From Psammoneis japonica (taxonomy: Eukaryota): 53,846 nucleotides of DNA. Position 1 is the first letter of the stretch, and each line of letters begins with the position of its first letter. The DNA lies in assembly GCA_008632985.1 (NCBI GenBank), contig QPGO01000331.1, forward strand, positions 1-53,846, in the 5' to 3' direction. The notes below the pieces were generated by a model. It ran no database searches. It saw nothing but the letters and a program-made list of their open reading frames with translations, and was not told the origin of the DNA. Shown here piece after piece: positions 6,287-36,292 of the stretch. The position numbers and the translations under genes are program-made.

Positions 6287-7534
6287 TCAATCGATCTCAT
6301 CCATGATTCCTTCTTTGTTTGTTTCAGACTCATCGCCGTCAGGTAGCGATGCAGTGATGTGCAAAAACGTTGCCACGTTCTTGGACGCAAATTCACATAC
6401 TTCGCACCCATGCTGCACCGTTATAGTGCCACCGCGATCTTTAAGTCTGTATCGATTCATGTCAATTTCCTCGACGACGATTATCATCTTTCTATCGTTC
6501 CGAAGAAGAGTGATAAGTTCACGGAGCGCGCTTCTGTTGTACGGGCCAAAAATGTGAACACTTGATTTCTTGTCTTGGCGAAGCAGTTTCTTCATTGTCT
6601 GAGACAACGCCACTAGATCAGAAAACAAATAGGCACAGTCACTAGCAACGACGGTGTCATAACTGGCCTCATAGCTACCAACAACGGCCGTCCTCCTTCC
6701 CTTTTCGGCGAAATCGTGCCAATTCAGTTTCCTCACATGCAAACGAGGTCCTACTACCCTCCCGTACGATTGACGAACTCGACCAATATTGTCTCTGCAC
6801 TGATTAATGACTTCTGCCTTGTAGTCTGTCATTGTAAATGACTTCATTTCTGGTGGACGATGAATGTGACTCATGATCCCGCCAAATCCAACCCCGCTCC
6901 CTAGTTCGATTACGTCACCAAAGAGCAATTCTGGATGCATAGAGAAGAACATGGCCATAACAATAGAGCTTTCCCATGTTGTAGAACCTGTACCCGCACT
7001 CCCTAGAACACCGTGATCAATTTCTTTGAGTTCAAACGACAGCATGGGATCACCCAGTCGCGCGAGGTCTTCTTTTTCACACCGGGGATGAATTGGTGTT
7101 ACTGAAGGCACGTTTTTTCTCAAAACAAAGCGTTTTGAGGCTCGCTCCAGGTCGTAATGCTCCTCTACAGCGAAAGGATTCCTTATCGAGTGACGGATCG
7201 AAGAAGACACGTCGAGCTCATAGTATGTTCTCGTCACTCCGTCACGCGATATGCAAAACGTATCGCCTTCGAGAAGCAATGGTGGCGGGGACAAAAAAGA
7301 AACGGCAACATTTTGTTGCTCTACCAAGGGCGTTAGTATTTCGTTCGAGGTGCTTGGACGACATTGGAAAAAATCTTCGCTGTTTCTAACAGGACGGGAT
7401 TGCGGGTATCGCGTCGGTGCTGATGTCACGTGAGCATTGACTGCTTGCTGGCTAAACACCCCCGACAAGGTCTGAAGACTCCGAGATCTTGATGTAGACG
7501 ATGCCATTGCCGCTCTGAACTTTGGTGTGGGCAT
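6287..7534 (-). CDS. Class I SAM-dependent protein-lysine methyltransferase, METTL21/Methyltransf_16 family
   Basis: Motifs GTGSTTWESSIVMA, VIELGSGVGFGG, MTDY, KLNW, YDTVVASDCAY. Start uncertain; the ORF is open to 7690. Confidence 0.85.
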   Translation of the reverse strand: MPTPKFRAAMASSTSRSRSLQTLSGVFSQQAVNAHVTSAPTRYPQSRPVRNSEDFFQCRPSTSNEILTPLVEQQNVAVSFLSPPPLLLEGDTFCISRDGVTRTYYELDVSSSIRHSIRNPFAVEEHYDLERASKRFVLRKNVPSVTPIHPRCEKEDLARLGDPMLSFELKEIDHGVLGSAGTGSTTWESSIVMAMFFSMHPELLFGDVIELGSGVGFGGIMSHIHRPPEMKSFTMTDYKAEVINQCRDNIGRVRQSYGRVVGPRLHVRKLNWHDFAEKGRRTAVVGSYEASYDTVVASDCAYLFSDLVALSQTMKKLLRQDKKSSVHIFGPYNRSALRELITLLRNDRKMIIVVEEIDMNRYRLKDRGGTITVQHGCEVCEFASKNVATFLHITASLPDGDESETNKEGIMDEID

Positions 7535-7724
7535 CAGAACATGCTTTCGGACAGTAACACCTAACACCGAATGAATCCAGATTTGAAAACAAGACCAGCC
7601 CAGGAAGTGAGTCCGTAGGGCCCTACAGTAATCATCATCATCACAGAAGATCCGTGTCAACAACATTGACGTCATCACGAACTCGTGCATACTCTACAGT
7701 CTACAGTCTTCTCTCTAGAGACTA

Positions 7725-10700
7725 CCGCTGGCCTCAAACGTTCCCGGCGTCCGTGACTGAAATTTCACCACGATGAAGTACGTGAGTCGAGTGAGTCGAT
7801 TGGACTCAAACGTTCCCGATTTGGCATAAAAAACGGCATGTTGCACTTTGATGTGTCTCGACATGGCAAACTTCGTTGGGTCGACGTATCTTTCTTGGGG
7901 GATCTTTTTCTATTGTTGTTATAAAGAGGTTGATGCATTGGTTTGGTTTCCGGGGGGGCTTCCGTTGCAACACACGGTGTGAACAGTTGCGTGCCTCGAC
8001 TCGTGACTCGATTGCGTCGCGGTGCGGGCTACATCTGAATGGTCGACAACGTCACAGAGGTAAGTTCTTTCTTTGTTTTCTCATTTTACACCAATTGCAT
8101 GCTCACCAAAGATGTTGTTTGCGCTTTGTTAAAGCTTCGCAGGTGGATTGATCGTCTCGTGCCGTCGATTGTTGCATCTGTGATGTTGGCGTTTTTTTCG
8201 AGGCGTTTGCACCACCACAGCGCATCCGTTTGGGAGCCTTGTGCCTCGTCCCACTCTACATCCTTTGGTGCACCTGTCATGCACATCAACATGGATTTGT
8301 GATGCGCTTGACATCCTTCTTGGGGGCTTGGTCGGCGCACAATCATGGCATGTCGTTTTTCGGCCGTCACAATGTTTGGAAAGTGCATGCCGTGGGAACA
8401 AAATGACGCAATGGAGCCTGGAGGACATTTGTGACAGTGGCATTTGTCAGACAGTCTTGTCACAGTCCACAAAAGGTTCGGAGGCAAAGATCGCACTCTT
8501 CTTGGGAGACTTGCCGTTTGATGGCAGACATGGCGGATTCAAAATCAGGGCAACGCAGAGTTTTCTGGCCAATGACACCGGAGACCACGAATCCCTTCAG
8601 CATCTTCTTCCATTGCGATGACTGAGTCAGGATTGACAGAAGTTTGGTGAGCAAGTTGACGATTGCATCCTTGTCCTTTCCAAGCTGAAGGGGAGTCTTT
8701 TCCAGGGCTCTTGCAGCCTCCAACTTGTTTGCATGAGCATGGGCGTCTAACTCTGTGGTTGTGGCTTGTTTCTTCAGGACAGATTTCGCAGCACTGAAGA
8801 CATCAGCTTGATTGCAAGATGCTTCCGATCCGGTCCTTGCAGGGTTGGTCTTGCTGGAGGTCATCTTCTCTTCATCATCAATTTTTGTCGCTTCTGGGGA
8901 AACCGTGTTTGCATCAATTTGTCCACGGTCACCATCCATGACAAGAATGCTGCGCTCGTCTTCAGTGGGTGCTTGGTCCAAGGCACCCATGCAGCCTCGC
9001 AACTTGTGATGCTGTCTCTGCACACAAGGCAAATGGACAAACTTGCGATGCATCACTGTGTGCTTGAGCTCAGCTTTGTCAACGTCGTCCCTCATGAACA
9101 GGACAAAGCCGACACCAGCATCAACGTTCGCATCACCTCCTGGACACAGCCCGTGCACATCCACTGAATGTGCACCATCCTTGTTGCCATGCGCATCTTT
9201 CGTGTGTCCTTTTGGGAGCTGACGTTTCGTCATCTTCTTGAACGTCAACATGACTGGCACGGCTTCTCCAGAAGCAACCATTGTGACGGCAAGTTTTGCT
9301 CTGAGGCACTCAAATGATGGATCTTTGCCTTTCTCACACTTTGAGTGATTTCCTGCGTCTGCGTTGTCTTTGGCAGCAACAACGCGCCACTCTAAAGGGT
9401 CTCCAGGTTGGGGGCCTTTCATGACAGCAAGCCCAGTGTCGTCCATTCCCATGTTGAGGGATGTGCTCGTCGGATGTGCTTTGTTTCCACGACATGTTTC
9501 AACAAGGTCAAGAAAGGTTTTTGCACCTGCAGTCAGGTTGGAGACCACGTTTTCAAAGGCTTTGTCCTCCCCATCAACAAGCGTTGCATCGGCGCATGGA
9601 ATGACCAAGGTTGTGGTGGCTCGCAAGGAGCGTTCGGCCGTGATGCGATTGTCGGTCTTGCGCTGCATCGTCTTGGTCATTGACAATTCACTGTTCTTCC
9701 CCAGAGCCAACCCGCGATGCCTCTTGGCTTCTCTTGTGGACACAGCCGTGTTTTCCGCCATTGGAACGACACCGCGCTCTGTCATTTTGGTGCATTTGTG
9801 ATCTGCCAAAGCTGTCTTCATTTCATCAAGCCCGAATGACTCACCGTCGTTTTGAACTGACTTCTTGCCAATCACTTGAATCTCATTGTTTGAGGCAACT
9901 GGTGTGTTTCCCCTGGCATGCCACTCTGTGTGCATGGGGTTGCCACTCGAGCAACTTTGAATTGTTTTGTTGCCAGCTCGTTGCACAGTGAAGGGAACCA
10001 GCGAGTGTTCCATTGTGCAAAATCAATGGCTTTGGTGCGATCTTGTTTGGGAATCATCAAAGCCATGTCAGCAAATTCCATCTTGCTGTGCATTTGTGTT
10101 TCCTTGTTTGCAGGCACGCAGAAGTTTGCACGAAGATGATGCGGTGGCTCAAGCAGTTGCGGTCTCTTGTTCACAGCATGTGCCCCTGGTTTTGGTGGCT
10201 GGTTTTCTTTGTCGTTTGCACTTCGGCACACGTCCTCTGGCACGGCGAGGGAATTGGATGGACGTTTCGGACCGGCGGCTCTTGATTCTTGCAATCGGCC
10301 CATGCTCACATTCTCTTGCATTCACTTCTGGCGGGCTTTTTCACTGTTCAAACGATTGTGGACGCACTGAACATTGGGGAGTTGAGCGGCACGAGCTGCT
10401 GTCACGGTTGCTCCTTTTGTCATCGCTTGCGAAATGGAAAGGCTGTTTTCGACAACTTTGAGCTTGCTGACGACTTCTTTCAACTTCTGCTGTGATGCTT
10501 TCTTCCCACTGTTCAATGTGTTCTGGACCTCTTTCAACACATTTTGCTGGTGTTGCATGTCCGAAGCGACAGCAGAACTGTCAAGAAGACCGTCGAATGC
10601 ATTGTCCATTTGGGATTTTTGCATCAACGCAGCGGCATTTTCTTCTGCATCCTTGAGCAATGAAGCAGCAGACAAAGCACACAGATGACTCATGGTTTGT

Positions 10701-10873
10701 CACTGTTCTTTGTGGTGTTCATTGGAGCTGCGACTGCATTTGAAACAACAGCAGCACGGTCATTGCAGCGTTGGCGTTGACCCGTCGCGTCAGAGGGAAT
10801 TCAAATCTTGCGTGCATCATCCTTCGCGTGCGGCGGGAACGTTTGAGGCAACGGGGACGTTTGAGGCCACCGG
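7725..10873 (-). mobile_element. Tc1/mariner-pogo-like DNA transposon, TA-erased relic
   Basis: 22-bp TIRs: CCGCTGGCCTCAAACGTTCCCG (7725-7746) and CGGGGACGTTTGAGGCCACCGG (10852-10873). Subterminal copies at 7801-7818 and 10834-10850. Flanked by TA (7723-7724) and CA (10874-10875). Contains a DDE-like ORF. Confidence 0.85.
8086..10693 (-). pseudogene. Degenerate DDE_1/pogo-like transposase
   Basis: ORF 8460-10013 has LNMGMDDTGL (cf. NMDETG), SILVMDGDRGQ (cf. LLILDGHxSH) and NPARTGSEASCNQADVF (cf. PxxxTxxxQPxDxxxF). Broken into several frames; no Tyr in 517 aa. Confidence 0.7.
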
Positions 10874-11315
10874 CAGTCTTCGGGAATGTTAAAACAGAAA
10901 TGACCCTGACATGCCACTGTCAAAAAACTCTGTTCTGATGTTCCAAAGTGCCAGAAGTGCTTCCCAGCAGAAAAACCTGCCAGAGCTGCGTCCCTCCGGG
11001 TTGGCACTTCCAGAAAATTGGAACAGCCTGTTCCAACATTCCCGGAGTGCCTCATGATGCCATTTGTCTTTTCTGCACATGTTCTGCACAGAGTGCATGC
11101 CAGCGTTTTAAGATCCCATGCGCCACCACAAGACTCCTTCCCGGGACTCGTGAGATTTGTGTCATCAAAGTTTCTGCCGCTCGCACCATTCCTGTCACAA
11201 CAATCAACCCACAATCTGAGTCCGACAAACAGCAACAGTTCATTTCATCGCTGTCTCCTGACAATGTCAACAACACAACATGCCAGGGGGGTGAACTGGA
11301 AGGCACAGTGGATGC

Positions 11316-14180
11316 GTGCACCCCCATCAGCGTGAAACTGATGATGATGCGCCAATCCTTGGGGGCGACTTGTCAGCACCTGGCGACCTCGCCGAAAAGT
11401 GCAATGAAACTGCCCAGTTGGAAATGGGAGACAAATGCCGACAAACCCATTGTCAGAGACTTGCACGTTTGGCCAAGTTTTGGAAGGAGAATGACCCTGA
11501 ATGTCATTCTGTTGGCGTTGGAGAGGTTTCTGCTGAAGACCTTTGCGATCCAACTGAGCACTGCTTCAATCGGCACCGAGAAGACCTTGTGCATGCAGGC
11601 ATGAACGACCAGTTTGCATTGCATTTCTCAGCGTCAAACAAGAAGAAGGCCAGTGGAAAGCTCAAGTTGTGTGAAGACATCCAAAAACACAAAGACGCCA
11701 CAATGTGGGGTGCCAAGACGGCAGACGAGCGCTTGCCTGAGAGCTTCCGTGCAATGTTTGATGAGTTCCTCACCGGGTGCAAGAAGGAACATGCTCAAGC
11801 AAGAAAGAGAGGGAATGCAGATGAAAACTCTGCTGATCCTGTTCCCGTTTCCTTGCACAAGCTCATGCTGGAATGGAGCGTGGAAGCCAACAACGTGTTT
11901 GTGTGGTTCTGGACCATTGCCCAGTGGAATTTCATGGCCAGGTCAACATCCACAGATTCCTCACGGATGAAGAATTTCAAACTGAGCATGGACAGCTTGA
12001 CTGGAAAGCATGCAGAAGCAAAGGCCGACAAGTCTGGAGAGAGGCTTTCAGAGAAAAATGTGTGTGCCAACCCACTGGATTGGACGATGTGCTTTTGGAC
12101 GGGCGCGGGTGTTCATTGTGCTCTTTGTGGCGATGAGTTTGTTGGCAACGATGCTCTCTTTTTGGACAAAGGTGTGAAGGAAGGAATGTGCACCACCAAG
12201 CATTGTGAGCAGATTGCTGGAATTTTGCAGGCCCGCTTGGACAAAATCATGAATCACATGGATCCAAGTCGCGTGAATCCGTGTGGCACTCGAAAGGGCT
12301 CGGGGACCCATGCCTTGAATGGGACCACTTCACCCCCGTCAATTCCAGCTGTTGCACGTCGTGGAGAGTGGACTGTCGGGAGTGTCCTTGATTGCCATTG
12401 ACATTTTGGCAGCATTGGCGACCAACATCTTGGACGCATTCTTGCGGTTTGGATCCAAACGATGCATCATTTGACATGCTTCCACCTCATTGGAAGCTTG
12501 CAGATCCGACATCAAATGAAAAAGTGAAACTTGGCATGATGAAAACATTTGGTGAGAATGTGACAAATGAGCACAAGACTTTTGTTCCCACTCTGCTGCG
12601 GTGCTTTGCATGTGTGGTGCATCGTCCCGACTCGCTGATTGAAGTTGTGGTGAGCGTGCCGGGTCATGACTTTTCGAAGCTGTCAATCCTCCATGAAAGG
12701 AGATTTTTGGGGGAGCTGCAATCTCTTGTGACAACAGAGCCTGCAGAAGGGGCATTGACTGTCCCCACTGGGATGCCACCCCATGTCGGCATGGCAAGAC
12801 AACTGTGCGAGTTGACACGCAAAGCCGATTTGATGCTCGCGAATGTGGATTCGCAGACGGAGACGTTGGTGGCGGCAGTGTTGGATGCAACAGATCAAAA
12901 AGCATGGGATTCTGGACATGTGACAAGTGATCGTCTGAAAGGGATGTTCAAAAGTTTTCAGGAGGAGACAATGCAAATGATGCATTCTGAGTTGGATGGT
13001 TTCAAGACTGTTTTGTGGTCCTTCCCTGCGGGCGGCAGCAACATGTGCACAAACGGCCGCATTGGCGCGGCTTCTGATGATGGTCCAGTGGAAACCACCT
13101 TTTGCTGTGACAACAAAACACACATGGTTCCAAAGCAATTTCGTCTTCCATCGGGAACAACAATCAAGGAAGGCCTGAGATTTTGGCTTTCTGGCCAAAC
13201 CGCATCAGCTGATGGTGCAAAGGTTGGACCTTTTTGAGACCTTGTGCCTTCCTCTCTCCCACCAGAGGCAAGGAAGGTTTGTTCTGTTCAGTGGAGTCCT
13301 GTCTTTCGCTTTGTTGAGAATGCACTGTCAGAGCAAGATGAGTCGCTTGGCGCCGACTCGGATTTTGATGACTTGCACGAAAAGTGTGTCGCGTGCTTGA
13401 AGGAGCATGTGCTTGAAGGAGCATGCCTCGCATTGCTTTGCCAAAGGAGATCCCATGGGGTGGAGCCTTGGAACTTGGAGCAACAGGGTGAGTCATTCAA
13501 TGACACCAAAAAGTGGAGCCGAGTCGGACAAAGGATTTTTGAAAGCTGGTGCGAACCGAAACAAACCTCGGCACGCTGCAACTTGAAAGCATGGTCCTCA
13601 CAATGCGAAACATCCAGGTCGCCAATGCAGACGCCTTGAGAATGAAAGCGTGGCAGAATCAAGAGTGGGAGAAGAGGATGCCTTTGCCAAAGCTTTCAGT
13701 GGTGCAGAGGACAGAATGACAGATCCCATGCGTGAGCGAGACGAAGAAATCAGAGCTGAAGCAGAGCGGGAAATGGCGGCAGAACAAGCTCAGCAACAGA
13801 AAGAGCGTGCCCAAACTGGTGATGGAGTGGGCACTGATGGTGCTCTTCTTTGTGCCCATCAGACGAATGGCGTTGAACGGAATTGTGGCAACGACTCGTT
13901 TTCGGCACGAGTGTCGCATGGCAAAAAAGTTGGTCATGCGATTGACTCCGATTCTGCTGGTGCTGGTGTTGGCATGGGCAAGGCGGGGACCAAACCAACT
14001 CAACCTGGTGTGTGTCCAATTGTTGGATGTACTTGCTTTCGCACCGTTCCTGATCACAAGTGCAAAAACAAGAGCTGCAACAAGTGCGTCCACTGCTTGT
14101 GTGCGCAACGTTGCAGCTTGACGAGTGCAAGCAATGAACTGAGCGTGCATTGTTCAATTGCATGCAAAGGCAGTGATTGG
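11316..14180 (+). pseudogene. Crypton (stramenopile-type) tyrosine-recombinase transposon relic with C-terminal Cys-rich zinc-finger-like region
   Basis: Motifs QWNFMARS, KADKSGE...EKNVCANP, NPCGTRKGSGTHA (cf. HSxRKG), RRGEWTVGSVLDCH*HFGSIGDQHLGRIL, GLDP..ASFDMLPPHW and HMVPKQFRLP...WLSG...GPF, typical of oomycete/diatom Cryptons. Disrupted by TGA stops at 12399 and 13235, a frameshift near 12447 and a 16-bp tandem duplication at 13393-13424. Confidence 0.8.
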
Positions 14181-14464
14181 ACGTTTTGTCATCAGTCAGC
14201 ACAGTGTCATCATTGCATTTTACTTTTGCAAGAGCAACCGAAGAAGTGGTCCAAGAGGTGCAGCGAGCGGCCCACTCTTGCGCAGGTGGTGAAGCCAACG
14301 GTGATGGTGAGGGGAACGACAGTGAAATTGGACACGCCACTCCATCTTATGATCAGCGGCACTGGACAGTTTAGTTAAAAGTGTTCAGCATTGTCAAAAA
14401 TGCTTTGATCGTTCACTCTGTTGTCAATGCGCCTGCCCAACTTGTGCCAGTTCTGAGAGTGTTT

Positions 14465-15175
14465 TTTGGACAAAACAGAAATCCACAATTCTCAACAACA
14501 CACAACGAGACCAACCCAGCAGGATGCATTGTGCAATTGCTCCCAACATTGAAAAAGAAACAGAGAAATCGGTGCAAGCATCATTGAGACATCATGTCGT
14601 AAAGTGGGACACCGGCACGGCGGCACGCATCATTGTGCTGCTGCAGTTTCTTGCGTGTAACTTTGAAACACATGTTCAACGATGTGTGTCGGCAATGCCA
14701 GCAATGAACTTGTTCATTCTGTTGTTGTAATTTTTGGTTTAGACATCTTTAAAAAACATTTGACAATGACATCACAAAAGAATCACAGTCAACGGAAATT
14801 AACGCCAATCGCATCAGACGCTTGTTGCGCGATTTTGCGGCCCGCATGTGGGCCGCAAAAATCTCATCGCAAATTTTTGCGGCCCGCATGTGGGTCGCAA
14901 ATTCTTAAAATGACGCTTGTCTCGGAATGCGCACGCAAAACTTGCATCGCCGACATCCATCGTTGCACACGTGCATTTCTCAGTGGCACGCAACAAACTG
15001 CAGCAGCACAATGGTGCCCACCGCCGGTCTCCCACTTTACGGTGTGATGTCTCAATGATCCTCACACCGATTTCCCCGTTTCTTTCATCAATGTTGGGAG
15101 GGAATGCACAATGCATCTAAATGGGTTGGCCCCATCTTCTGTCATTGAGAATTGTGGATTTCTGTTTTGTTCGAA
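14465..15175. repeat. Long imperfect inverted repeat (arms ~14465-14700 and ~14945-15175)
   Basis: ACAAAACAGAAATCCACAATTCTCAA (~14470) is mirrored at ~15146-15171. TCATTGAGACATCA, GTAAAGTGGGA and CATTGTGCTGCTGCAGTTT are all mirrored in the right arm. Confidence 0.85.
14831..14903. repeat. Two tandem GC-rich palindromes TTTTGCGGCCC-GCATGT-GGGCCGCAAAA
   Basis: Copies at 14831-14863 and 14874-14903, between the arms of the long inverted repeat. A half-site occurs at 16083-16093. Confidence 0.9.
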
Positions 15176-16096
15176 ACCACACAGAATTTTCAAATTTGGA
15201 AAAGCACAAAATGACGGAATGAGCACCAATTTACAAACACTGCACAAACAGTTGTTCTTTTGTGACATGCCAAAACAGACAAAACATGGTTGTGCGGAAT
15301 GTGGTTTCCAATGGCAGTTGCTTGGCTGCTGATCTAGTCTAGTTCCTCAACCGTGATGACAGATTGCCGCGCCAGCTTTTTTGTGGAGTCAACAGAGCGG
15401 CTGTTGCTGACACGCATTCAGCAACAATGAGCTGCGGATCTCGTGCCTCAACTGTGATGCAATGAATTGCAGACATGCCAGCTTTGAAAGGAGCAAACAC
15501 TTTCTTTCAATCTCTGCCAATGCCAACTTGTGTCCTCCTGCAACAGTTCCGTCGCCGCGGCGCCTGACCTCTCCTTTGTCTGCGCCCATCATGTTTTCTT
15601 GATGCTTTCCCAAATTGATCACATGGGCATGGGCAATGACCTTGAATCGTGCTCGAGCTCTCTTGGCCATTGGCAACTCCACAGGAAGACTTGGAGGGGG
15701 GGCATGCACGGGTGCAGATGGTGCTTCGGCAGTGGACTGCGACACCGGATTTCGCGGCATGTCTTGAACAGGCGAAAAAGGCATGTCCGTTCCCGCTGCA
15801 AGCAATGCTGACACATCTGGCACTTCTCTGACGATGTTGTCAGGCGTCCGAGATTGCTGGAGTGAACATCCTTCACTGGTGTGGCCCGCCGCAGGGTCCG
15901 CCATGGTGGAGGGAGAAATCGGCGAAAAAGTGCGCGAAAATGCGCGCACATTTTAGAGGCTACGACAACAACCACTGGGACTTTTTTGACAGATGAAGTG
16001 TCGATTCCTGTGTTTTCGGGCATGGAGAATTCGACTGTGGGGTCAATTCATCGATTGTCTGTGTCATTGAAGATTTGAAAAAATTTGCGGCCCATG

Positions 16097-16414
16097 CTGC
16101 AAATTGCAAAACAATTGCGCGATGCACGTGCCCGAAGGTCGAATGTCGTTGCCCGAAGCAACATTCCTCCTTCGCGCAGATGTCCATTCTACATGGTGTG
16201 TGGTGTTGAAAATCTCGCTGTAGTCGCATGAGTCGTTGAAGTAATTTCATCAATGACCTCTGTTTTGCTGTGCTGCGTGATCTACACAAATCGGACATTC
16301 TCGAATGCTGGTATATTTTCTACGGTCTCTACGTGCGCGAAGCTCGAATTTCGTGCCCGAAGCAACAATCACCCTTCGGGCACGTGTGTCGCGCAATTGT
16401 TCAGCAATTCGCAG
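16097..16414. repeat. ~42-bp inverted repeat, possibly the subterminal structure of an unclassified element
   Basis: 16111-16138 ACAATTGCGCGATGCACGTGCCCGAAGG versus 16373-16400 CCTTCGGGCACGTGTGTCGCGCAATTGT. The direct repeat GCCCGAAGCAACA also occurs at ~16151 and ~16355. Confidence 0.8.
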
Positions 16415-17056
16415 TACGTACATGCCACTTCGTGTTGCTGTAGTCACGTGAGAGGCTTTATATTTTATATCCATTAACGAGTGAATCAATCCCGCAAATA
16501 CAGCTATTTAGGTACGGTAGGCAGACATAGAGAGTAGGAACTACCAGCGCAGCTCGGAGGCTGAGGAGGTTCCTACTAACTGTATGAATACAGTGTGGTA
16601 CCGCACGTCGAGCGCGCTACCGGTATGTAGGCCCTAGGCCCTAATCAAGTTTCGTTTTGTTTAGCTCTCTCTACTCTATGCGCTAGAGCTAGAGTAGAGA
16701 GTAGACTAGCTACTAGCAGTGCCTAGAGTTAGCTACCTGGTACGGTAAGTACGGCAGCGCTGTAGTTTAGTTCCTTACTTGAGCGAGAAAGATAAATAAG
16801 AAGATTTAGGTAAGGTAGTTAGTCGCACTGGCTTTTGGCTCGGCACCAGGTGCTGCTTGCAGCAATGATGCCATTGCGCAATGGTGGCAAACATTTTAGA
16901 CTGGTTCACTCCGGAGATGGCGTCCGGAGTGGAAACGGAGAGTGGAAGTTTCAGAGCCGGCACCAGGATTTTGTGCTTAGTCCAAGGCCTCCCTGAAAAA
17001 CATAAACTAGATTGCTGGCGTCACTGGTTTCATTCATTTACAGCAAAAACGACATA

Positions 17057-20000
17057 TTAATGCGGAATCCCGCCAGGCGGCGGCCACTCCCACACACTCT
17101 TATTCGTTTTAGTGTCAAAGAAATACCAACGTTTCTGACTCTTTGACCACACACAAATCCAGCCCTGAGGCAAGTCCACTTGGGGCTTTTTCTCTTGCAT
17201 CTGCATGTCCGGAAGTGAAGTGAGGGATTCGGTTTTCTTGGGCTTCGGAGGAGGCGGAGGAAAGCTGGGCTTCTGACGCTTGGCTGCGGATTGCTCTAGC
17301 AAAGGCGGTGCTTGTTTCGCTGTCGGGGGTGGCGGCGGTGGCGGTGGTCTTCCTGAAGGAGGAGGTGGCTTTCGATGCTGAGGAGGTGGCGGTGGAACCG
17401 GCCGCGCCGTCACCTTCTTATCGCATGGTCCAGATTGCCTCCTCTGCACTGCACCTTCGTGAGTCTCGGTAGCTGCCCTTTGCCGTTTCGATGCAGGATT
17501 GCGCTCGGGTGTGGACTCCCTCTCGCGTTTCCTTGATGAGCCCTCATCGGAGTGTACATGCGAGCTACGCTTTCTGGCCGGCGGCAGTGCGTCCGCAAAG
17601 ATAGCTTCCCCTTCCCCCTCCGCCGACGAGAACGTGTCATGAGGAGGCGAACCGGGTGATCTACGAGGATCTGCCTCCTCTTTCTCATGCTGTAGTGGTG
17701 GCCTTTGATTTGAGAAGATATCGGGAACAAGTGAATCGCCCCTCTTATCTTTGTAGGGATTACCAAAATTGACCATTAGCCGTGATCGTACTCTAGTTTG
17801 TACTGAATCCGAGAATTCTCCAGTCTTCAAATCGAAAAATGAGAGAGGCATAGCATCATCATCAACAGACCAAATCGGGGAGCCATCCGGCGCCGTCGTC
17901 GCCGCTGAGCCAGATGAATCGTTAGAGCCGTAGCCCACCACCGGAGCCCTGGACCAAAGCAGTCGCTCTCTAAAGTCGCCCATGCGCGTGGTTCTTGTCT
18001 GGTTCAGAGTTGACACACCCACCCCAGCGACAGAAAGCAGAGATTCATCCTTTGCACAGTGATTCGCCTTACAATAATGCGCGTTGCTCCCATCGTTGTT
18101 GACGCCCTCCACATGAAGGCCTCTAGTCGCCAACCCCGATCCCCCGAATATCCATCGCCTTCTAGACTCGTAGTAAGGTATAAGACAAGAGGCTGGAAGG
18201 GCGCCGAGTCTGTAAAACCCATGAAGATGTAGTGAGCAATACATGAAAATATTGCCATTATCTGCAACAGTGAAGAATTCGACTTACACATCGACCGTCG
18301 TGTTCATTTCCCTGCCTTCCACAACACAGGTCGTTGAAGCTACATTGCTCGTAGCATCGCGCGCAGAGCTTTCATTCTTCGGCCTGTTCTTTCCAACCCG
18401 TTGCCGCCCAGCATGCCAGGGTGCAGGCATGTTTCGAATAGCAGCAAGAAAACTACTGGTCGAAGCCCTGGGATCATACCGACCGTAGCCGATCACCACA
18501 TTTGCGGTGCTCTTGAGTTGGCCTCCTCCTACTAGGCGCAACTCTGCCTCCTGTCTTTCGAGCCTCTCGTTCATTTCCTTCGCTGCTTGTTCTCCTCCCC
18601 GAATTTTCTGCAAACATACCTTGGAGAAGCACTGCGACGCAAGAGCTTCAATTCCGTCGGTACTCAACAACGAATGTACACTTGTTGGTAGGATGGAGCG
18701 GAGACAACGCCTCAGTGAGATCTGGTAGTAAGGCGGAACCCGAAAAAGGTAAGCTCTAAACTCAGACCTCCAATGTTCGTCAAGCTGTACAAGTCTCGGG
18801 CCCGTGTTGGTCCCGGTTTGCTTGTGAATAAGCCCGGCGGTCGCCCCACTCCTGTTTGCTGAAGCACTTGAACTCTCTTTCTCACCTGACTTCTTGATGG
18901 CGCGATGTTCTGCTTCCGCGGCTTTCACCAACAGAGGAAGCAAAATATGAGGTTCCGGAGGGAGCAACGTAAGAGTTGATAATCGTGTCGAACCCTGCTT
19001 TGAGGATTCAACATTTTGGAGCGTCGCTGAGTTACGCGGGATGTGCAGGATGCCAATTCCAAGGAAGCTTTCTTCACCTTCTGACAGAGACGACCTACCG
19101 GCTCCTCGAACACAGACTGGAAGATACTCTCGCTGAGCTTTGATTGGCACTCCTCCTTTTCCATCTTGAGCAAGCCACTCACAAATATACGTGTCGCGCA
19201 GGAGTGCCGTTGCTTGGTTTAGATGGCCCGAAGCGATTGGAGAAGGCGATGCATGCCGGTTGGAAACAAGAAGCTGATCTAGTCGATTTATCGCCTTTAT
19301 TACAAGCAAAGGGTCGAACATGCTTGACCCTACCACTTGATAGTGATGTGTATACGCAAGAGACGGCTGCGCCAGACGTGGTGGCAAAGTGTCGAGTTTC
19401 TTGCTCGGGAAAAAAGATTCGGGAATGCAGAAGATTGGTGGGTGGAACGTCTTAGGTTGCGGTCCCAAGGTCGTCTGTACTTGGTTATACGGTACATAAA
19501 GAAGCATTGCTCGGGTGAACTGACGCATGTTCCGCCGAATCAATCGACCGGAAGCAACAGATTGGACCTCCATTAACGAATGAGGCACACATACCCGGCG
19601 CCTGCCTCAAGGGGGCGGTAGTTTGAGACTGTGTCACAGGACGTGGGTCCAGTGGGTCCAGTATCGGGAGAACCGAAGGACGCGGAGGAGCCATAAGCTT
19701 GATCAAGAGCTTCGTCGTTTGAGAAAGCGACGTGGCGGATTTGAGGAGAGTGTGGCACCCCCCTGTGACCTCGCACAGCGCTTTCAGTGATGAATGCAGA
19801 TACTGAGTCGACGATACACCTTCTTTTGCACCAACGCATAAACAGAATATTCTTGGTCCCATCGAAATGGCTCTTTGTAAAACTCTCGAAGATGCGAAGT
19901 CCCAACCTGTAATTGAAGAGAGCCTCCTCCATCAGAGGGTGGCAGTCGCAGACACTCCCCGTCAGTGACCAAGACAAGGCATGCCGGCTGGAGAGCATGA

Positions 20001-20662
20001 ACCGCAGCACCCCCACCTCCGGATGTGCGCATTGCCGGTGATGGCAGCCTTCCCATTCCAAAGTTCTCCGTCGACCGATACTGCAAACGGTATCGTGAAA
20101 GTAAGTGGAGTCCAGCAGAGAGGGCCTTGTTTAATCCAACGGCTCCACCTCCACCTTCCGGAAAAGGCACACGCTGAGGCTGAGCTCCTGCTGTAGCGTT
20201 ACCCGGTGGTTGCCAAACAGCCGCTTGAAGTTGTTTTAGCTCACGGTCAAAGCCCCCCTGGTTACTGGCCTGCATTGTTGCAGAAGCTTGTTCTCCTGGG
20301 TGATCGCTTGTTGACGAGGGATCCATCGAGTCTCCATATCCCACCAATAAACGACCTCCAGCACCACAGGCAGCAGTAACAGGATGCTCGGAATGCTGCC
20401 GACTGGTGGAAAGAAGGAGAAACTGGTCTTGGGAACAGAAACCAAGCCCCAGGTTATGAAGTGAGTTTTGCATTTGCGTCGTCTCCTGCTGCAACAGTAG
20501 GTTATGTTCCATAACCCGTTTATTGAGACCTTTTGCAAGGCTCTCGACTGCCATTTTCGCTAAGTCTAATCGAGACATACCCTTGGAGACTGCCGACGAG
20601 GCCTCTTGGGACACGGGCTTGCTCATGGATGGCGACGTATCGACCACAAACACCACAATCAT
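17057..20662 (-). CDS. INTS6: Integrator complex subunit 6-like (N-terminal VWA) with Pro-rich tail and C-terminal WW domain
   Basis: MIVVFVVDTSPSM...SRLDLAKMAVE, ENFGMGR, LVTDG, KEPFRWDQ, MGDFRERL and NFGNPYK match INTS6 motifs. WW domain LPQGWICVWSKSQKRWYFFDTKTNKSVWEWP. Intron 18210-18287; probable 1-nt indels near 19853 and ~19550. Confidence 0.85.
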
Positions 20663-20999
20663 TTTGATGGCACAACTGCTGGCAAAACGATGAAGTCCAA
20701 ATCCGGTGGGTTTCAGGTTTTAACAGTGACCCCAGCTATTGTAGTCAGGTTTGAACCCTGTCGATCATATCGTCAATTTTCTGCGAACGGTGGTGCCCCG
20801 GGGCGGCCAGTTCATTGCATCAAGCTAGAGAAGTAACAAAGTGCTCAGTCAGTTATGATGTCGAATGTCGCCCATGGCGTGCCGCACTGTACTGCCGGCG
20901 CGGCGCAATCTTGAAGAGTCTGTCCTCGAGAGCTACCGGGCACCGTACCGGCAGCAGCGAGGAGGAGTGTCGTTGAAGGCATTTCAAAGACTCATTACC

Positions 21000-22701
21000 C
21001 TTTCGAAGACGCGGCGGCGGGTGCCACCGGTGTTGTTGAAACACAGGCTGCTTGAGCCTGTGGTTGAAAGGGCTGACCTTCGCTGCGGAAAAATGTTGGC
21101 TCTGCTTTTGGTCATTCTTGTGAAGAGCCAAGAGAAGCCCAGCGCCAATGTGTTTCTTCATTCTGCAGCAGCAGGAGGCAAGCAGCACAGAGAGGGACAA
21201 ACGAGAGTGACAGCTGTGCCAAAGCGTGCAAGTGGTTCGAAACAAGAAGAAAGCCTCACCTCGGGGAGCCCCCCACCAGTTTTCCTGATGCCCTGCCAGC
21301 CAGCCAGCCAGCCAAGGGCAGCCAGGACAAAGAGCACCTCTCTCACACATGAGCGCTGCTGCTGGTGGGCCGACCTCAAGCGGGAGACGTGTGGCGCTGC
21401 CACTGCACGACCACCCCCTCTGTGCTGCCACAGCGGCTGGCACAGTGCGCTGCCTGCCCTTCTGCCACCTGCCGCTGGTCAAAACATGCAGCAATTTTTC
21501 AAGGCCAAAGCCAAGGATCTGCGTTGGAGAACATGAGACAAGGTCACAATGTGGGATTTTGCTGGCCTGCCCAAGTTTCAAGTTCAAGGTCAGTTTGGGC
21601 ACAGAGCTCACAAGGAGAGCTGGTGCTGGCACCAAGCATGCAGCGCACCTGCCACATGGGAGCGCGGCACTCCACCAGCAGCTCTTGACTTTCCCTGCGC
21701 AGCCCTTGTGCAAACACGCGCCACCCAAAGAGCAAGACTGCATTGCCGAGCAAAAGATCACTCCGCCAGGCTCCACAGGTGCCTCCCCACTTCTCAAAAC
21801 TGTCAGAAGCTTTCCAACACATGCTGCGCCAGATTCCCAAACACAGCCAGGCAGTGGTCAAAACATGCGCTCCAGCATGCCGGACAATCTCAAAACATGC
21901 ATGAAGCCCAGGGCACACATTCTTTCTGCGTGCAAGAGCTTTCCCCAGTGTGAACAGTTGCTGTGATGCTGCTGGTCATGGAACAGGGCAGAGTTGCTGC
22001 GCACACTGCTGCCCACCTCCAGCGCAGTGGGCGCCCCAAGTTTTCATCATCTGACTGCCCCAGCGAACCCAACAAGGCCCCAGTCCTGTGACGTGCTGGC
22101 TCCAGCTTCCAAAAGATGCTGCCGCAGATGTGGTGCTTGCCGCTTTCAGAAATCTGCAAGGAATGCCAAGGCCCAAGACTTTCAACCAACCTTGAGATGG
22201 CTGGCAGCAGCAGCACATGTGTGCACACTCTGCTGCAGACAATTTTGACGTGCAGGAAAACCAAACTCATTTTGACTGTGTTCACAGTTTGGGGACAATG
22301 TGCTGGCAACCAAAAGCTTGCCAGCGAGGTGACACCTCTTGCACACAAAACTCACTCAATGCTGCCTTTTTTGTCTTGCTTGGGCAACTTTCATGTGGAG
22401 GCCACCAAGCTTTGGCACTTGCAGGGCCCTGCCACCTGGGCTGTCCTCTTGCACAGCCAAATTGCTGCGCACTGCGCACCATCATCTGACGTGGCATGGC
22501 TGGCTGCCCTTGGTGACAAGCCTTCGCTGCTCGCACCCAGGAAAACGGTGCGGCCATCTGCAGCGAGGTCAACAGCTCAGAAGGCTTGTCAGCCACACGC
22601 CCTTGGACCCATGCCACCCTGTGCGAAAGAGCCACTGGCTGCCATGCGTTGCGCCTTTTGCAATGGCATGGTGTCCTCTGTGACGCAGCAATGATGGGGA
22701 G

Positions 22702-22757
<56 letters not shown>

Positions 22758-23340
22758 NNNNNNNNNNNNNNNNNNNNNNNNNNNNNNNNNNNNNNNNNNN
22801 NNNNNNNNNNNNNNNNNNNNNNNNNNNNNNNNNNNNNNNNNNNNNNNNNNNNNNNNNNNNNNNNNNNNNNNNNNNNNNNNNNNNNNNNNNNNNNNNNNNN
22901 NNNNNNNNNNNNNNNNNNNNNNNNNNNNNNNNNNNNNNNNNNNNNNNNNNNNNNNNNNNNNNNNNNNNNNNNNNNNNNNNNNNGTGTGTGTGTTCTTGCC
23001 CTCTCTGGAGCAGAAAATGGAGCACCCCCTTTCAAGAAGAGACCCACATCAAGTTTTGCTTGGTGGTCTTGGGCACAAACTTTGCATGGTTGGAGTTCCC
23101 ATCAAAGGTCCTGTGAGCATCATTTTTTTGTGAGAGGGCAAGGGCCTTTTTTTGTTGGGAACACTTCAAGGGGACCAAACAAATGGAGCTTTGTAAAACA
23201 ACCTGCACTCTTGCATTCGCCGTGGTTGTTCTCTCAGTGCAAAAAGGAGTCTCAGAGGGGCTGCACCTGGCCTCTGAGGGAGCTGATGAGGGGCTCGCAT
23301 TTTGAGCTTGTTGCCTCACTCACTTGTTGGTTGCACTGCA
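21000..23340. other. TpA-free island with no recognisable coding relic
   Basis: No TA seen in 21000-22757 and one in 22984-23340 (manual scan). Rich in TG/CA; contains a (CCAG)n tract at ~21296-21313. Confidence 0.85.
22708..22992. repeat. (TG)n microsatellite spanning an assembly gap (N 22758-22983)
   Basis: GT repeats on both sides of the N run. Confidence 0.95.
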
Positions 23341-24091: not shown

Positions 24092-25606
24092 TCATTTGCT
24101 ATTGCTGACAGCGCTTCGTCTCAATAAGTACTCCTTGAGTTCGACATTGTTTTCTGTCTCGTAGTCAAGAAATTGCCTTACTGCATCTCGAAGCCCAGGG
24201 TGACATATATAGTGCGAGGAATGAATCAATGCAGGATCAAAGCCTCTCGCCCACTTGTAATCTAACATGCATTTTGTCCGTCAAAGCAGAAAGTAAATAT
24301 GTGAAAGGGTAAGTACCCAGACGAATTCAAACGCGAATACTCTTCCTTACCTCCACCACCAGCACCAGGTTCCATACGCTTCAGCCCATTTTTGATACAG
24401 TATTCAATTGCTGACCAATAGCAACACTCAAAATGCAAATTCTTGATCTCTCTCCCCGGAAGACAGCCCCAGTATCGACCGTAGAAAAACTCCATCCTTG
24501 ACAATGTTCAATGTTCCCGCAAAGACATCGTCTGCACGTAGCTTGTCTCCGGCAGATTTGTCCCGCGCACACAGAAAGCACAGGTTATGAATGAAGTCTC
24601 CCTTCACCAGGCACTGAAAGAAGTCGAGAGTCAGGTATTGTCGACCGTAAAACATCCGATTGACTGTAGACACATATATTTCGAACATGCGTTCCACCAA
24701 TCCATCGTGCTTCAGTATATCGCTTCCAGTCACGGCGTCGATTCGTACATTTTCGTCTTGTACAACCTTTTGCCGTTCTCGACGAATGTTGATTCGCCGT
24801 TTACTTTTGAAGCATTTCAAATAGTCCTCAAAGGACTTGTACGGCTTCCCGTCGTTGTTTGGATTGCTATTTGTCCAATGATATTGAAGCGACGTACGTC
24901 GCAAGTAGTCGTCCTTGTTCTTATTGAGTTTCGTCAGTACAGCCTTGAGCTTACCTCCCAAAGAGCCTTTTTCCTCTTTCTCGTTCACTTCCTTAGCTTT
25001 AGGGAGTTCGCCTGAAAGGTGTGTTGCCTCATCGTGAGTCAGGAAGTTGAAATGAACACTGGAAATGTTATTTGATTCAACAAGTCGTCGCAAAAAGGAA
25101 CCAACCATGACAGTGAGATTAGCGATCTCCTCTTTTGAAAATGTCTCTCTGATTTCCGGATGGAACATTATCCGTGCTCCAGTGGCCGGTGTAAAGGGTA
25201 CGCCGACTAGTAGCTTTGGATAGTATTTGATGCCATTCTGATACGCGGCTTCGGCCCACGCATCGTCGAAAATGAATTCTCCGTTGGAATGATTTTTGAC
25301 ATAGAGAGGGATATATCCGCGTACCGCTCCATCGATCTTCAGTGACAAGTGCTGAGGGACCCAACCAGTCTGTGGCGACACGCATTTGGATTCTTCGAGA
25401 CAGCACAAAAACGCGTGTTCCAAGAACGGAGAGGAAGATCCATCAGGTGCAAGACAATTATTCCATTCCTTCGCAGGAATGTCGGAAATTGACGGGTTCA
25501 GTTCAAATTCCACTTTCCGTTTCTTAGTTGGCGGTGCGGTCGCCAACGCATCTGTGTATGATGCAACCAAATACAGCAGCCATCCGCAAACAAGCAGCGG
25601 GCTCAT
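24092..25606 (-). CDS. DUF482/FemAB-like GNAT-fold protein, probably plastid-targeted
   Basis: SPFLEHAFL...GWVPQHL, PLYVKNHSNGEFIFDDAWA, YYPKLLVGVPFTPATG, YGRYWG, LHFECCY, EPGAGG|DYKWARGFDP. Intron 24262-24350; 1-nt indel near 24488. Signal peptide MSPLLVCGWLLYLVASYTDA-L. Confidence 0.85.
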
Positions 25607-26069
25607 GGTGAAGAATGTGGAAATGGTCTGGAAAAGATCGATACTGTAGATAGATACAGTAGATCATCGTTCGGGGGTGAATGACGTGGCAAAATTCCAA
25701 ATGTTAGTTTTACGCTTTCGAGTATGAATATAAACATAAAGTACTGCAATAACAATGTTCGTCCCCGTAACTTTTTATGTATGTGTTTTAGTCGAATCAT
25801 TCGTACGTCAGATGAATGAGGAGAAAAATGGCGCGCCGGATTTTTTCGTCGGCACGTCTTCCGTCTATCTCACACGAAACAATGCACGAAGCACATTCGG
25901 CCAACATCCAACATGCAACATCATCTTTCACAACACAAAACGAATGTACCGAGTTTATTGTGCTTTCTACAACAGCGCATTTCCTGTTCGAATAATCAAG
26001 GTTCCTCCCCGTATCGACACGATTGTCTCTACTTCATTTCTCTCCCGTTCTCTACTCTCCCTCCTCAGC

Positions 26070-31017: not shown

Positions 31018-31868
31018 GGTGTCTCCTGCCTTCGTTGTGTCGTCTTTTGCTCGGCGCTGGGCGGGCGCCGCGCGCCTGGCGCCACCCGCCGCAACCCGTA
31101 CCCTGGAAACCCGCGCAATCAACGCGCAACCCACTCCCGGCTTGCCCGCCGTCGCAAAGTAGAAGTACTGTAGAGATAGATGACGCGGACGCTGATAGAG
31201 GCAATGCAAATAATGTATCTCTATCTCTACTAGAGGGCCTAGAGAGTAGAGAGCTACTCTAGCTGAGATAGCCCTAGAGCTGGCAGGTTGGCTTAGCTGG
31301 GATGCGATGCCACCTGTAGCCAGCTACTTCTAATATCACAATGAAGAGTACTCTTCTACCGGAATGGATTCAACAAGTTTAAACTGGAATCGATAATACG
31401 GTAGGAAAGGCATAATCTCTCATTTTAAATATACTGTTAAAATACATTCCACGTGGCAAGGACCTCGGGCCCCTTGCTTCGCGCCCAATAGCGATGCATT
31501 GCTTGCCAACGCTCTACGCCACTGCTACTGTTGGGACTTTCATTGTGAGGCTCTTCAAGGACGATCCTTGCACCAGTAGAAAGGACTAGACCTGGAGAGA
31601 GTTACTTCTACTAATTATCGCTGATCTGTCGAAAGACACTTCAGTCAAAGAGTGACAGAATCTAATTCTCGTTGTCGACACATAACCATGAGTTCACGCA
31701 ATTCGAATACGGAAGTAGGCTAATCTCTCTTGCAGGATCACACAGTGGCAGATCAATTGGTGAATAGCTCACGCCATTTTCCAACACATAAGGTTTACAT
31801 AAAGACGACCAAGAAATTGCAGCTGCATTCACTGTCGTAAGATCAAGACGTGGCTTGCAAGAACCGCA

Positions 31869-36106: not shown

Positions 36107-36292
36107 GTGCCAGCACATGATGCAACATCATGCCTTCAGCAACGCTGTCATTTTTCGCCCATTGTGGTGCCATGCGATGGTCTGATTGGCAAGGAGGCTC
36201 AAGCCGCCCTACGTCAGCTAGCGGGAAAGATTTCTAACAAGTGGCAGAAAAGCCCTGTTTGGAAGTGTGTGGCTTCTTGTCAACGCAAGTGA
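36107..36292 (+). mobile_element. 3' fragment of a CRE-like non-LTR retrotransposon (C-terminal restriction-like endonuclease region)
   Basis: CLQQRCHFSPIVVPCDGLIGKEAQAALRQLAGKISNKWQK resembles the CxxxxxHFTPFVxSxDGLLGxEAxxxLxxLAxxLxxKW tail of such elements. Confidence 0.6.

Follow-up and report, generated by a model that had tools for sequence, protein, structure and literature searches.

TpA-depleted blocks with a dead Crypton-type element in a diatom genome suggest a second lineage for TpA-to-TpG/CpA hypermutation of mobile DNA

Transition hypermutation directed against mobile DNA has been known previously only in the C->T form, represented by fungal repeat-induced point mutation (RIP) and by the APOBEC proteins in animals. 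For a TpA-specific A:T->G:C process, there is one earlier report, a 2026 preprint on a single rhizarian alga, in which no enzyme accompanies the process. Here we describe the signature of such a process in a 53,846-nucleotide (nt) stretch of the genome of Psammoneis japonica (contig QPGO01000331.1 of assembly GCA_008632985.1, positions 1 to 53,846; hereafter, the window). Three blocks of this window, B1 (8258-16190), B2 (20997-23193) and B3 (36236-47513), are almost devoid of the dinucleotide TpA (TA), and B1 contains the remains of a tyrosine-recombinase gene of the Crypton type.

In mutation-accumulation lines of the chlorarachniophyte Bigelowiella natans, the mutation rate of two integrated viral regions is about 6e-7 per site per generation, and 230 of the 231 mutations are A->G or T->C, all of those at TpA; the process was switched on in only a subset of the lines, where it exceeded the background rate about 1000-fold (10.64898/2026.01.13.699255). 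The targets are integrated DNA of nucleocytoplasmic large DNA viruses and virophages, with TpA at 3.3% of dinucleotides, and the genome contains 124 TpA-poor, CpA+TpG-rich clusters along with 324 TpA-poor coding sequences enriched for DDE and reverse transcriptase (RT) domains (10.64898/2026.01.13.699255). In the available text of the preprint, the authors (Mettrop et al.) propose a defence comparable to RIP, with an ADAT2-like protein as a candidate, and point out that ADARs favour a 5' U (10.64898/2026.01.13.699255).

The locus in P. japonica shares with these regions the replacement of TpA by TpG/CpA on either strand and, probably, the confinement of these changes to foreign or mobile DNA. 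All three blocks match the TpA-poor, CpA+TpG-rich description of the B. natans clusters, and the substitution type is the same (TA->CA/TG, with 16 of 18 Tyr replaced by His or Cys in one comparison and His or Cys in 11 of 13 conserved Tyr columns in another, see below). The host flanks are spared, with sharp edges; one block is multi-copy and contains a Crypton, and B2, B3 and a 520-amino acid (aa) open frame in B1 are unclassified. The B. natans clusters, as described in the available text, carry DDE and RT domains or genes that could not be annotated. The differences are nevertheless substantial. B. natans is a rhizarian whereas the host here is a stramenopile; the targets there are integrated viruses as opposed to a Crypton and unclassified repeats; and the values given for B. 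natans (TA of 0.45 in the viral region, a cluster threshold of <=0.43) contrast with the saturation seen here, with observed/expected (o/e) ratios of 0.00-0.05. The available text of the preprint mentions neither diatoms nor CpG, whereas here CpG decay coincides with the TA loss. The gene-level outcome (Tyr->His/Cys, with the presumed catalytic Tyr lost) and a rule of protection by a 3' A are seen only in the diatom; judging by the same text, only in B. natans has the process been watched happening. An earlier note, made from the window sequence alone, had proposed a new genome-defence system; its novelty does not survive the publication of the same signature for B. natans (10.64898/2026.01.13.699255). 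Its remark that no description from diatoms was known still applies, given that a literature search found no report of the TpA->TpG/CpA signature in this group. Thus, the present locus appears to represent a second lineage for this type of hypermutation, not its first description. A mutation-accumulation study of Phaeodactylum tricornutum, in its available text, reports no such signature; sites with more than 2.5 times the mean coverage were excluded from that study, and saturated repeats would in any case have no TpA left to mutate in such lines.

Script counts over the window bear out the TA scarcity that the earlier note had noticed by manual scan: there are 2 TA against 152 expected in 8281-10880, 0 against 176 in 11111-14029, 23 against 491 in 8260-16180, 1 against 92 in 21000-23300, and 34 against 761 in 36300-47500. 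With the block limits set from the gaps between successive TAs, B1 (7.9 kb scored) has 23 TA compared with 492 expected (o/e 0.047), a CpG o/e of 0.71 and a TG+CA o/e of 1.59; B2 (2.0 kb scored, with an N gap at 22758-22983) has 0 compared with 97 (o/e 0.000; CpG 0.37; TG+CA 1.78); and B3 (11.3 kb scored) has 34 compared with 767 (o/e 0.044), with only 63 CpG against 643 expected (o/e 0.098) and a TG+CA o/e of 1.84. Four stretches of host DNA, by comparison, show a TA o/e of 0.54-0.67, CpG 0.87-1.06 and TG+CA 1.09-1.14; for example, the flanking host genes on the minus strand at 16500-20900 have a TA o/e of 0.67 and a CpG o/e of 0.87 and are represented by single-copy contigs in two sequencing runs (X1 and X2, see below). 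Given 0.0417 TA per base in host DNA, a TA-free gap of 2921 bp has a log10 P of about -54. The TA scarcity of the three blocks is thus confirmed as real, and the host flanks are ordinary.

The edges of the blocks are abrupt, with TA back within 0-50 bp of each edge, and at both edges of B3, CpG returns at the same place as TA. The missing TA (469, 83 and 733 in B1, B2 and B3, respectively) and the missing CG (146, 84 and 580) sum to 615, 167 and 1312, and TG+CA exceeds its expectation by 588, 176 and 1179; that is, the bookkeeping closes, the surplus of TG+CA matching the combined deficit of TA and CG in every block. The TA loss outpaces the CpG decay, being saturated in B1 and B2 while the CpG o/e ratios there are still 0.71 and 0.37. 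The residual TAs of B1 are unevenly distributed: 17 of the 23 fall in 14030-15340, which may be a younger or less exposed insertion. The wider stretch 14030-16190, which includes an inverted repeat, has a TA o/e of 0.13 and a CpG o/e of 0.85.

The element in B1 for which relatives are readily detected occupies positions 11295-13583 on the plus strand. An exhaustive HMMER search started with the frame 11295-12398 identifies 1,083 relatives, 87 of these at E<=1e-30, the best one with 55% identity. Full-length relatives are proteins of 670-990 aa, and their hidden Markov model (HMM) matches four successive frame pieces of the window (11295-12398, 12392-13234, 13238-13636 and 13401-13583) over profile positions 6-763 of 825. 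This is a dead, near-full-length tyrosine-recombinase gene of a CryptonS-like type with a few frameshifts. Pfam is effectively blind to the family because seven intact relatives show neither an RT nor a GCR1_C domain and no match other than Peptidase_C48 in one of them (P0027, E 7.8e-6). A profile of the relatives compared with Protein Data Bank (PDB) sequences likewise yields nothing significant, and only a fold search succeeded. An AlphaFold2 (AF2) model of the intact relative P0003, which has 48% identity to the window copy and on which, rather than on that copy, the fold was assessed, has a predicted local distance difference test score (pLDDT) of 75.8, and its top Foldseek matches in PDB are all tyrosine recombinases, namely, Cre, XerA, Tn1549 and lambda integrases, with the probability of 1.00 (e.g., Cre 5u91_E at E 1.7e-4, probability 1.00 and a template modelling score of 0.42-0.57). 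These matches, together with the HMMER relatives and the four-piece profile match, uphold the Crypton label of the earlier note.

Residues R220, R337, K338, G339, R360, W363 and Y372 are invariant in the alignment of the relatives (26 sequences). The window gene retains the RKGSGTH and RRGEW motifs and has His at the position of the Tyr, the assignment of the tetrad having been made by eye, without superposition. The His codon, CAT, lies at 12396-12398 (plus strand), in column 368, where Tyr is present in 25 of 25 relatives (Y372 of the 26-sequence alignment); of the invariant residues in the R..HxxR..Y layout, the one replaced is the final Tyr, which is taken to be the catalytic nucleophile. 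CryptonS elements, described in oomycetes and in one diatom, P. tricornutum, lack GCR1_C and possess a conserved C-terminal region and sometimes a C48 peptidase, according to the available part of the source, which also gives terminal direct repeats of 5-6 bp, often TATGG, as a Crypton feature (Kojima and Jurka 2011, PMC3212892). The window family agrees with this account in containing a tyrosine recombinase only, in having a conserved C-terminal region, no GCR1_C, one relative with C48 (Ulp1), and a stramenopile host; the window copy, which is matched to CryptonS by description, differs in being dead, with several frameshifts and the presumed catalytic Tyr replaced by His. Another relative, locus L002 (a metagenome contig of 2777 bp; 49% identity), has a TA o/e of 0.62, a CpG o/e of 0.63 and a TG+CA o/e of 1.30, that is, CpG decay without TA loss.

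Comparison with the Crypton relatives indicates that the TA depletion is mutational and not an ancestral composition, and that a once-functional recombinase has been destroyed, including its presumed catalytic Tyr, because Tyr is replaced by His or Cys at conserved columns, because the TAs of an intact relative have the corresponding fates, and because copies of the element differ from one another by TG, CA and TA. Among the 150 relatives listed, out of 1,083, Tyr is present in 148 (median 3.8%), whereas in the window frame Tyr is absent (0%), with Cys at 4.6% and His at 4.9%. The 13 columns with Tyr in at least 50% of 25 relatives are occupied in the window by 8 His (CAY), 3 Cys (TGY), 1 Arg (CGT), 1 Asp and no Tyr, and two further conserved Tyr columns in the next frame (17 relatives) contain His and Cys. 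When the 25 relatives were examined one at a time as a control, 8-13 of 13-15 conserved Tyr were retained, and none of them had more than 3 His or Cys at these columns. The window preserves 80-100% of the conserved G, D, K, P, N, W, F and E residues but Ile in only 2 of 13 columns. The intact metagenomic relative L001 (4133 bp; one open reading frame (ORF) of 1159 aa; GC 42%; TA o/e 0.71) can be aligned with the window codon by codon, with 190 of 366 aa (52%) identical. Opposite the 18 Tyr of L001, the window has His in 10 cases, Cys in 6, and Lys and Arg in 1 each, and opposite the 56 TA of L001 it has 17 CA, 16 TG, 4 CG, 19 other dinucleotides and no TA at all; dinucleotides other than TA are kept at 19-61% of sites. 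The same decay seems to have struck two other Crypton lineages in public environmental data. The two Tyr-free relatives among the 150 listed, P0086 and P0096, and P0158, which goes with P0096 and is Tyr-free too, come from environmental assemblies, have 30-43% identity to the window frame, and show His or Cys at the conserved Tyr columns.

A second line of evidence comes from copies of the blocks. The contigs of runs X1-X3 were compared with positions 7000-22700 of the window; X2 and X3 contain little or none of this stretch, whereas X1 contains 0.47 of 949 sampled 31-mers of 7600-16600; no RNA run is listed for it. Altogether, 906 contigs fall over 7000-22700, with 260 at least 99% alike, 285 at 95-99% and 361 at 90-95%. 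In X1, the host genes are covered by long contigs with a depth of about 54 and few differences, as opposed to the many short contigs of B1, which are 90-100% alike and have a summed depth of 130-1000 (2.4-19 times the host depth). Summed depth is not copy number, but an excess of this kind means that several related copies of B1 exist. For B2, the depth is 52-94 (about 1-1.7 times the host depth), with zero-difference contigs at 21264-21525 and 22188-22505. The description of the process in the earlier note as active and repeat-targeted is not supported, there being no sign here of ongoing mutation and B2, unlike the multi-copy B1, lying at roughly single-copy depth.

Differences between the window and the run comprise 461 transitions and 53 transversions, and their classes rest on the 40 of 520 differences that are listed, 35 of which are inside B1. 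Among these 35, TA stands opposite CA (9) or TG (2) of the window in 11; 6 make up TG<->CA changes at three pairs of neighbouring sites; CG stands opposite TG or CA of the window in 10, and 3 show the reverse; the remainder are 3 other transitions and 2 transversions. The inverted repeat in B1 (14464-15176), with arms at 14464-14701 and 14941-15176 that are 80% identical, tells a similar story at a single locus. The arms differ at 42 of 233 aligned sites, including 4 adjacent TG<->CA doubles compared with about 0.6 estimated by chance; the share of pyrimidine-purine (YpR) classes among the arm mismatches, assessed by simulation, is uninformative, the sequence being too rich in TG and CA. Given the TG<->CA doubles between the arms and the TA, TG and CA differences among the run copies, the copies and both arms of the inverted repeat shared TAs and then decayed independently. 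The process thus indicated, TA->TG/CA transition on both strands of integrated mobile-element DNA, is the one that the earlier note had put forward, and the conserved Tyr columns, the fates of the L001 TAs and the differences between copies all support it.

Several further observations concern relatives of B1 and its edges. A 316-nt contig in X2 with a depth of 514, about 92% alike to 8219-8477, shows TA at 9 places (8271-8340 and 8431) that are CA or TG in the window; a relative of the left end of B1 that has decayed less is thus abundant in that run. Around the edges of B1, at 15908-16431 and 7524-8571, the summed depth in X1 is 4025 and about 920-1050, respectively, against about 54 for the host. 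Units of 50-53 nt at 16097-16178 recur at 16331-16414 in direct and inverted orientation with 84-85% identity and span the edge between TA-free and TA-containing DNA. The high-depth repeat at the edges of B1 may be a small high-copy element.

The comparison with L001 and the residual TAs allow the rules of the process to be formulated. The outcomes are symmetric with respect to the strands, with 17 CA and 16 TG within one gene, and their order (22 runs compared with 17.5 +/- 2.8 expected) is near random; thus, hits are independent from site to site, and there are no strand-coordinated tracts. Only 4 of the 56 TA sites have reached CG, as expected if one hit removes the TpA context for the other strand. 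The process strictly requires TpA and stops once a site is no longer TpA. Among the 57 residual TAs, 48 have TAA on at least one strand, and, relative to host DNA, the context TTAA is enriched 7.2-fold and CTAA/TTAG 3.25-fold. TA survival rises from 0.017 through 0.104 to 0.47 for TAA on 0, 1 and 2 strands, and the respective values of -ln survival are 4.10, 2.26 and 0.75, with an additive expectation of 2.43 for one strand. These values fit two independent targets, one per strand, at which a 3' A lowers the rate of hits about 5-fold.

The closest known processes account for the pattern only in part. RIP tracts are strand-coordinated, whereas the hits here are independent. RIP and the decay described here have in common the irreversible transition hypermutation of repeated or mobile DNA in a dinucleotide context, sharp limits and the inactivation of transposon genes. 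However, RIP consists of C->T changes mostly at CpA, creates TpA and lowers GC, in contrast to the destruction of TpA and the rise of GC in the blocks, and it requires duplication and a premeiotic stage, requirements with no evident counterpart here. Removal of TpA with a 1.6-1.8-fold enrichment of CpA+TpG is the opposite of RIP, which is accordingly rejected. The decay of 5-methylcytosine (5mC) to T in silenced transposons also yields TpG/CpA from a YpR step; nevertheless, it cannot remove TpA, the loss of which is complete here even where the CpG loss is partial. Deamination of 5mC as the whole cause is also rejected, given that it covers the missing CG but not the missing TA; it operates besides the TA process and explains the CpG loss in B3 and B2. 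The statement of the earlier note that neither RIP nor 5mC decay explains the TA loss is therefore borne out. Its suggestion of a mutagenic polymerase of the pol-eta type, with a WA hotspot, fits poorly: AA+TT is undepleted in the blocks (o/e 1.17-1.33, compared with 1.12-1.15 in the host), and the A>G rate relative to L001 at ApA (0.23) is close to the rates at CpA (0.21) and GpA (0.18).

Adenine deaminases invite comparison as well. The natural target of ADAT/TadA, A34, follows U33 in tRNA. The ADAR, TadA and ADAT2-ADAT3 enzymes thus share with the present process the A->G outcome and, judging from the preferred 5' U of ADARs reported in the available text of the preprint and from the U33-A34 substrate, the upstream pyrimidine. 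ADARs, however, act on double-stranded RNA. Editing of an RNA intermediate by an ADAR-type enzyme is rejected because a Crypton is a tyrosine-recombinase DNA transposon that has no RT and no RNA intermediate, and because the outcomes are equal on both DNA strands.

These observations are best compatible with a scenario in which the blocks are integrated, dead mobile-element DNA in the nuclear genome of the diatom, where nearly every TpA has been turned into TpG or CpA by a context-specific transition process; we regard this as likely, and its component of mutational decay in place, limited to mobile DNA, as highly probable. A mark of foreign or silent chromatin would direct the process to integrated mobile DNA, a mode of targeting suggested by the block-wide, co-extensive CpG decay, which fits methylated heterochromatin. 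The process would act in place on chromosomal double-stranded DNA by enzymatic deamination of A in 5'-T-A (A->I, read as G). As the comparisons above show, each TpA is converted once, on either strand and independently, down to near zero, and the decay goes on after copies separate. Invaders would be irreversibly inactivated through the destruction of Tyr codons, TAA and TAG stops, TATA and AATAAA signals, and TA/TTAA target sites. A rough calculation with the B. natans rate of about 2e-5 per TpA per generation suggests that the survival of 0.017 would be reached in about 2e5 generations, an evolutionarily short time. The involvement of a dedicated enzyme seems to have slightly better than even chances. 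Adenine deamination is a plausible chemistry, if somewhat short of probable; in its favour are the change of A to G, a 5' pyrimidine requirement comparable to that of ADAR/ADAT, and the B. natans data, and T->C change via an oxidised or modified thymine at TpA may be an alternative, the strands being equivalent.

Several considerations weigh against this scenario. Neither the enzyme nor the chromatin mark nor ongoing mutation has been observed in this organism, the mechanism being read from the sequence. The only eukaryotic DNA adenine deaminase tested, amphioxus ADAT2, prefers 5'-GAA-3' and single-stranded DNA hairpins according to the available part of the study (PMC10354150), not duplex TpA. 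B3 and the 520-aa frame could not be established as mobile elements, and the near single-copy depth of B2 in X1 suggests that repeat number may not be the trigger. Edges that coincide with the ends of elements would also fit editing before or during integration. X1 is possibly the sample of the assembly itself, in which case its support against an artefact may not be fully independent; the classes of differences between copies rest on the 40 listed; and the flank rule presumes that the blocks began with host-like TA contexts.

Among the rival explanations, the one that comes closest dispenses with a dedicated mutator. A modification or lesion of silent chromatin, affecting adenine or thymine at TpA (e.g., an oxidised thymine that pairs with G), would mispair or be misrepaired, and TpA would decay passively, as a by-product, much as CpG does at 5mC. 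The CpG decay of methylated DNA is a known model of such logic, TA and CpG are lost within identical edges in B3, as a mark of a chromatin domain would predict, the unclustered, site-by-site pattern fits slow accumulation better than bursts, and T->C on one strand is indistinguishable from A->G on the other. Yet TA has been lost completely from B1 and B2, blocks that have lost only 29-63% of CpG, which implies a process much faster than 5mC decay, and the process described for B. natans looks regulated, given that it came on in some lines but not in others and raised the rate about 1000-fold over background. To our knowledge, no TpA-specific modification has been reported in diatoms. Passive decay of this kind thus appears unlikely. 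APOBEC edits retroviral cDNA, and by analogy, transposition intermediates or entering copies could have been mutated outside the chromosome and integrated already TA-poor. The sharp block edges with no visible leak into host DNA, as well as the differing choices of TG or CA in each copy, would be expected from such editing. But the TG<->CA doubles that distinguish two arms at one locus, the mosaic of at least two unrelated, uniformly saturated elements in B1, and the absence of all 176 expected TA in 11111-14029 with unclustered, strand-independent hits, which would require many rounds, argue against it, as does the finding, in the available text on B. natans, that already integrated DNA is mutated in culture. 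Editing outside the chromosome is therefore considered quite improbable.

The remaining two alternatives concern the reality of the mutations. A signature limited to repeats, where assemblies are weakest, and the possible identity of the best run and the sample of the assembly would be in keeping with errors of the repeat consensus or with a modification at TpA that causes the base to be called as G or C. However, X1 contains almost half of the sampled 31-mers, and over parts of B2 its contigs show no differences at all, so that the run does contain the TA-free sequence, and the test for an artefact proposed in the earlier note (TA at these positions in independent reads) does not refute the finding; TG and CA are interleaved within one molecule, where strand-specific misreading would produce reads with all TG or all CA; and environmental assemblies from other sources include Tyr-free relatives with the same substitutions. 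An artefact is very unlikely. Still less credible is an ancestral or selected composition, with families that are TA-free by nature, e.g., to evade TA/TTAA-targeting transposons or a nuclease. The Tyr-free P0086 and P0096 are the observation in its favour, and these show the same His or Cys at conserved Tyr columns and hence appear to have decayed too. Nearly all listed relatives contain Tyr, and L001 has an ordinary TA content; the relatives are thus not equally free of TA and Tyr, the outcome that would have told against the earlier note. Furthermore, other copies in X1 keep TA, and the window copy, frameshifted and deprived of the invariant, presumably catalytic Tyr, is not a functional recoded gene. 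For the Crypton, the comparison with its relatives has already refuted this explanation.

Apart from the Crypton, the contents of the blocks offer few clues. The three ORFs pointed out in the earlier note indeed lack Tyr and end in TGA, but this adds no evidence: a sequence that lacks TA can contain neither TAA or TAG stops nor TAY codons, both features are therefore corollaries of the TA absence, and long open frames are to be expected on both strands. In 200 order-1 Markov simulations of the B1 composition, the longest frame averages 236 aa. The 520-aa frame at 8463-10022 (minus strand) exceeds the longest frame in 99.5% of these simulations and, for this reason, is probably a relic of a real gene. 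It has no relatives in Pfam, a word-index search, the atlas, viral contigs or PDB sequences (best E 1.5), and its single-sequence AF2 model is unusable (pLDDT 32.9). A 16-nt inverted pair at 8428/10911, which flanks the region of this frame, may be due to chance. A Pfam scan covered 154 frames, namely, 153 of the 160 block frames of at least 70 aa (seven frames at the N gap were left out) and one edge-straddling frame, with E limits of 0.01 for 13 frames and 0.1 for 141; none of these frames reaches the cut-off, the best match being WT1 (E 0.0058, 16.3 bits against a cut-off of 27).

The longest frame of B3, 322 aa, is about 2 standard deviations above the null mean (222 +/- 44) and shows no relatives in the searches made. 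B3 gives no sign of an RT, integrase or transposase, its frames are all free of Y/H/C/F-x-D-D motifs, and it contains no repeat resembling a long terminal repeat or other long internal repeat, save for 40899-41092 versus 41146-41343, a direct duplication of about 195 bp with 73% identity in the most T-rich part of the block; one trivial tandem repeat is present as well. The pogo-like, LINE and copia labels given to these blocks in the earlier note are thus left without support, there being no Pfam match at cut-off and no RT-like motif in B3. B2 and B3 are unclassified, and B1 appears to be composite, a mosaic of at least two unrelated elements, all of them saturated.

The genes outside the blocks point to a diatom host and not to B. 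natans. The named relatives of the RPC3/RPC82 gene of the window are all diatoms (Seminavis robusta, Cyclotella cryptica, Stephanocyclus, Cyclotella atomus and Conticribra; 33-40% identity), and the best other matches reach 49% identity. The host genes consist of long single exons, although a contig joint suggests at least one GT..AG intron, 78 nt in length. Specifically, a 3922-nt contig of X2 skips 18210-18287 (78 nt; CT..AC on the plus strand, GT..AG on the minus strand), which looks like a spliced intron joining the WW-domain and INTS6-like frames into one gene; X2, the type of which was guessed as DNA, may thus contain cDNA-like sequence. A FemAB-like/GNAT acetyltransferase gene (24431-25663, minus strand; Pfam E 4.9e-71) is located among the diatom host genes and may be an old bacterial acquisition, the nearest atlas clusters being all bacterial. 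Short TA-rich spikes in host DNA (16501-17000, 51001-51500, 31001-31500 and 1501-2000), with a TA o/e of 1.1-1.4 compared with 0.5-0.7 nearby, are probably intergenic or promoter stretches; one of these is about 300 bp past the right edge of B1.

With a diatom added to B. natans, the TpA-specific process is not peculiar to one species and may be widespread in marine protists. We tentatively propose that diatoms and chlorarachniophytes share an old dedicated defence enzyme that would convert A to G at 5'-TA-3' in duplex chromosomal DNA of silenced or foreign chromatin, with a preference for TAB (B being any base but A) over TAA, one strand at a time, until TpA is exhausted. If this is the case, such an enzyme would be a functional mirror image of RIP across the stramenopile-alveolate-rhizarian (SAR) supergroup, and would have, as its catalytic part, a naturally occurring A:T->G:C editor of duplex DNA from an as yet unrecognised family; any enzyme of this process that acts on duplex DNA would be of interest for base editing. 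The rules obtained here, namely, strand independence, a strict need for TpA and protection by a 3' A, are testable, and the question moves to a group that includes transformable, CRISPR-ready model species for which methylome and histone maps exist, which opens a way to the enzyme and its targeting. Annotation misses many diatom repeats, which show no Pfam matches, orphan ORFs and false long ORFs caused by the loss of TAA and TAG; TA decay explains why, and the comparison of Rho TpA with Rho CpA+TpG suggests itself as a simple genome-wide detector.

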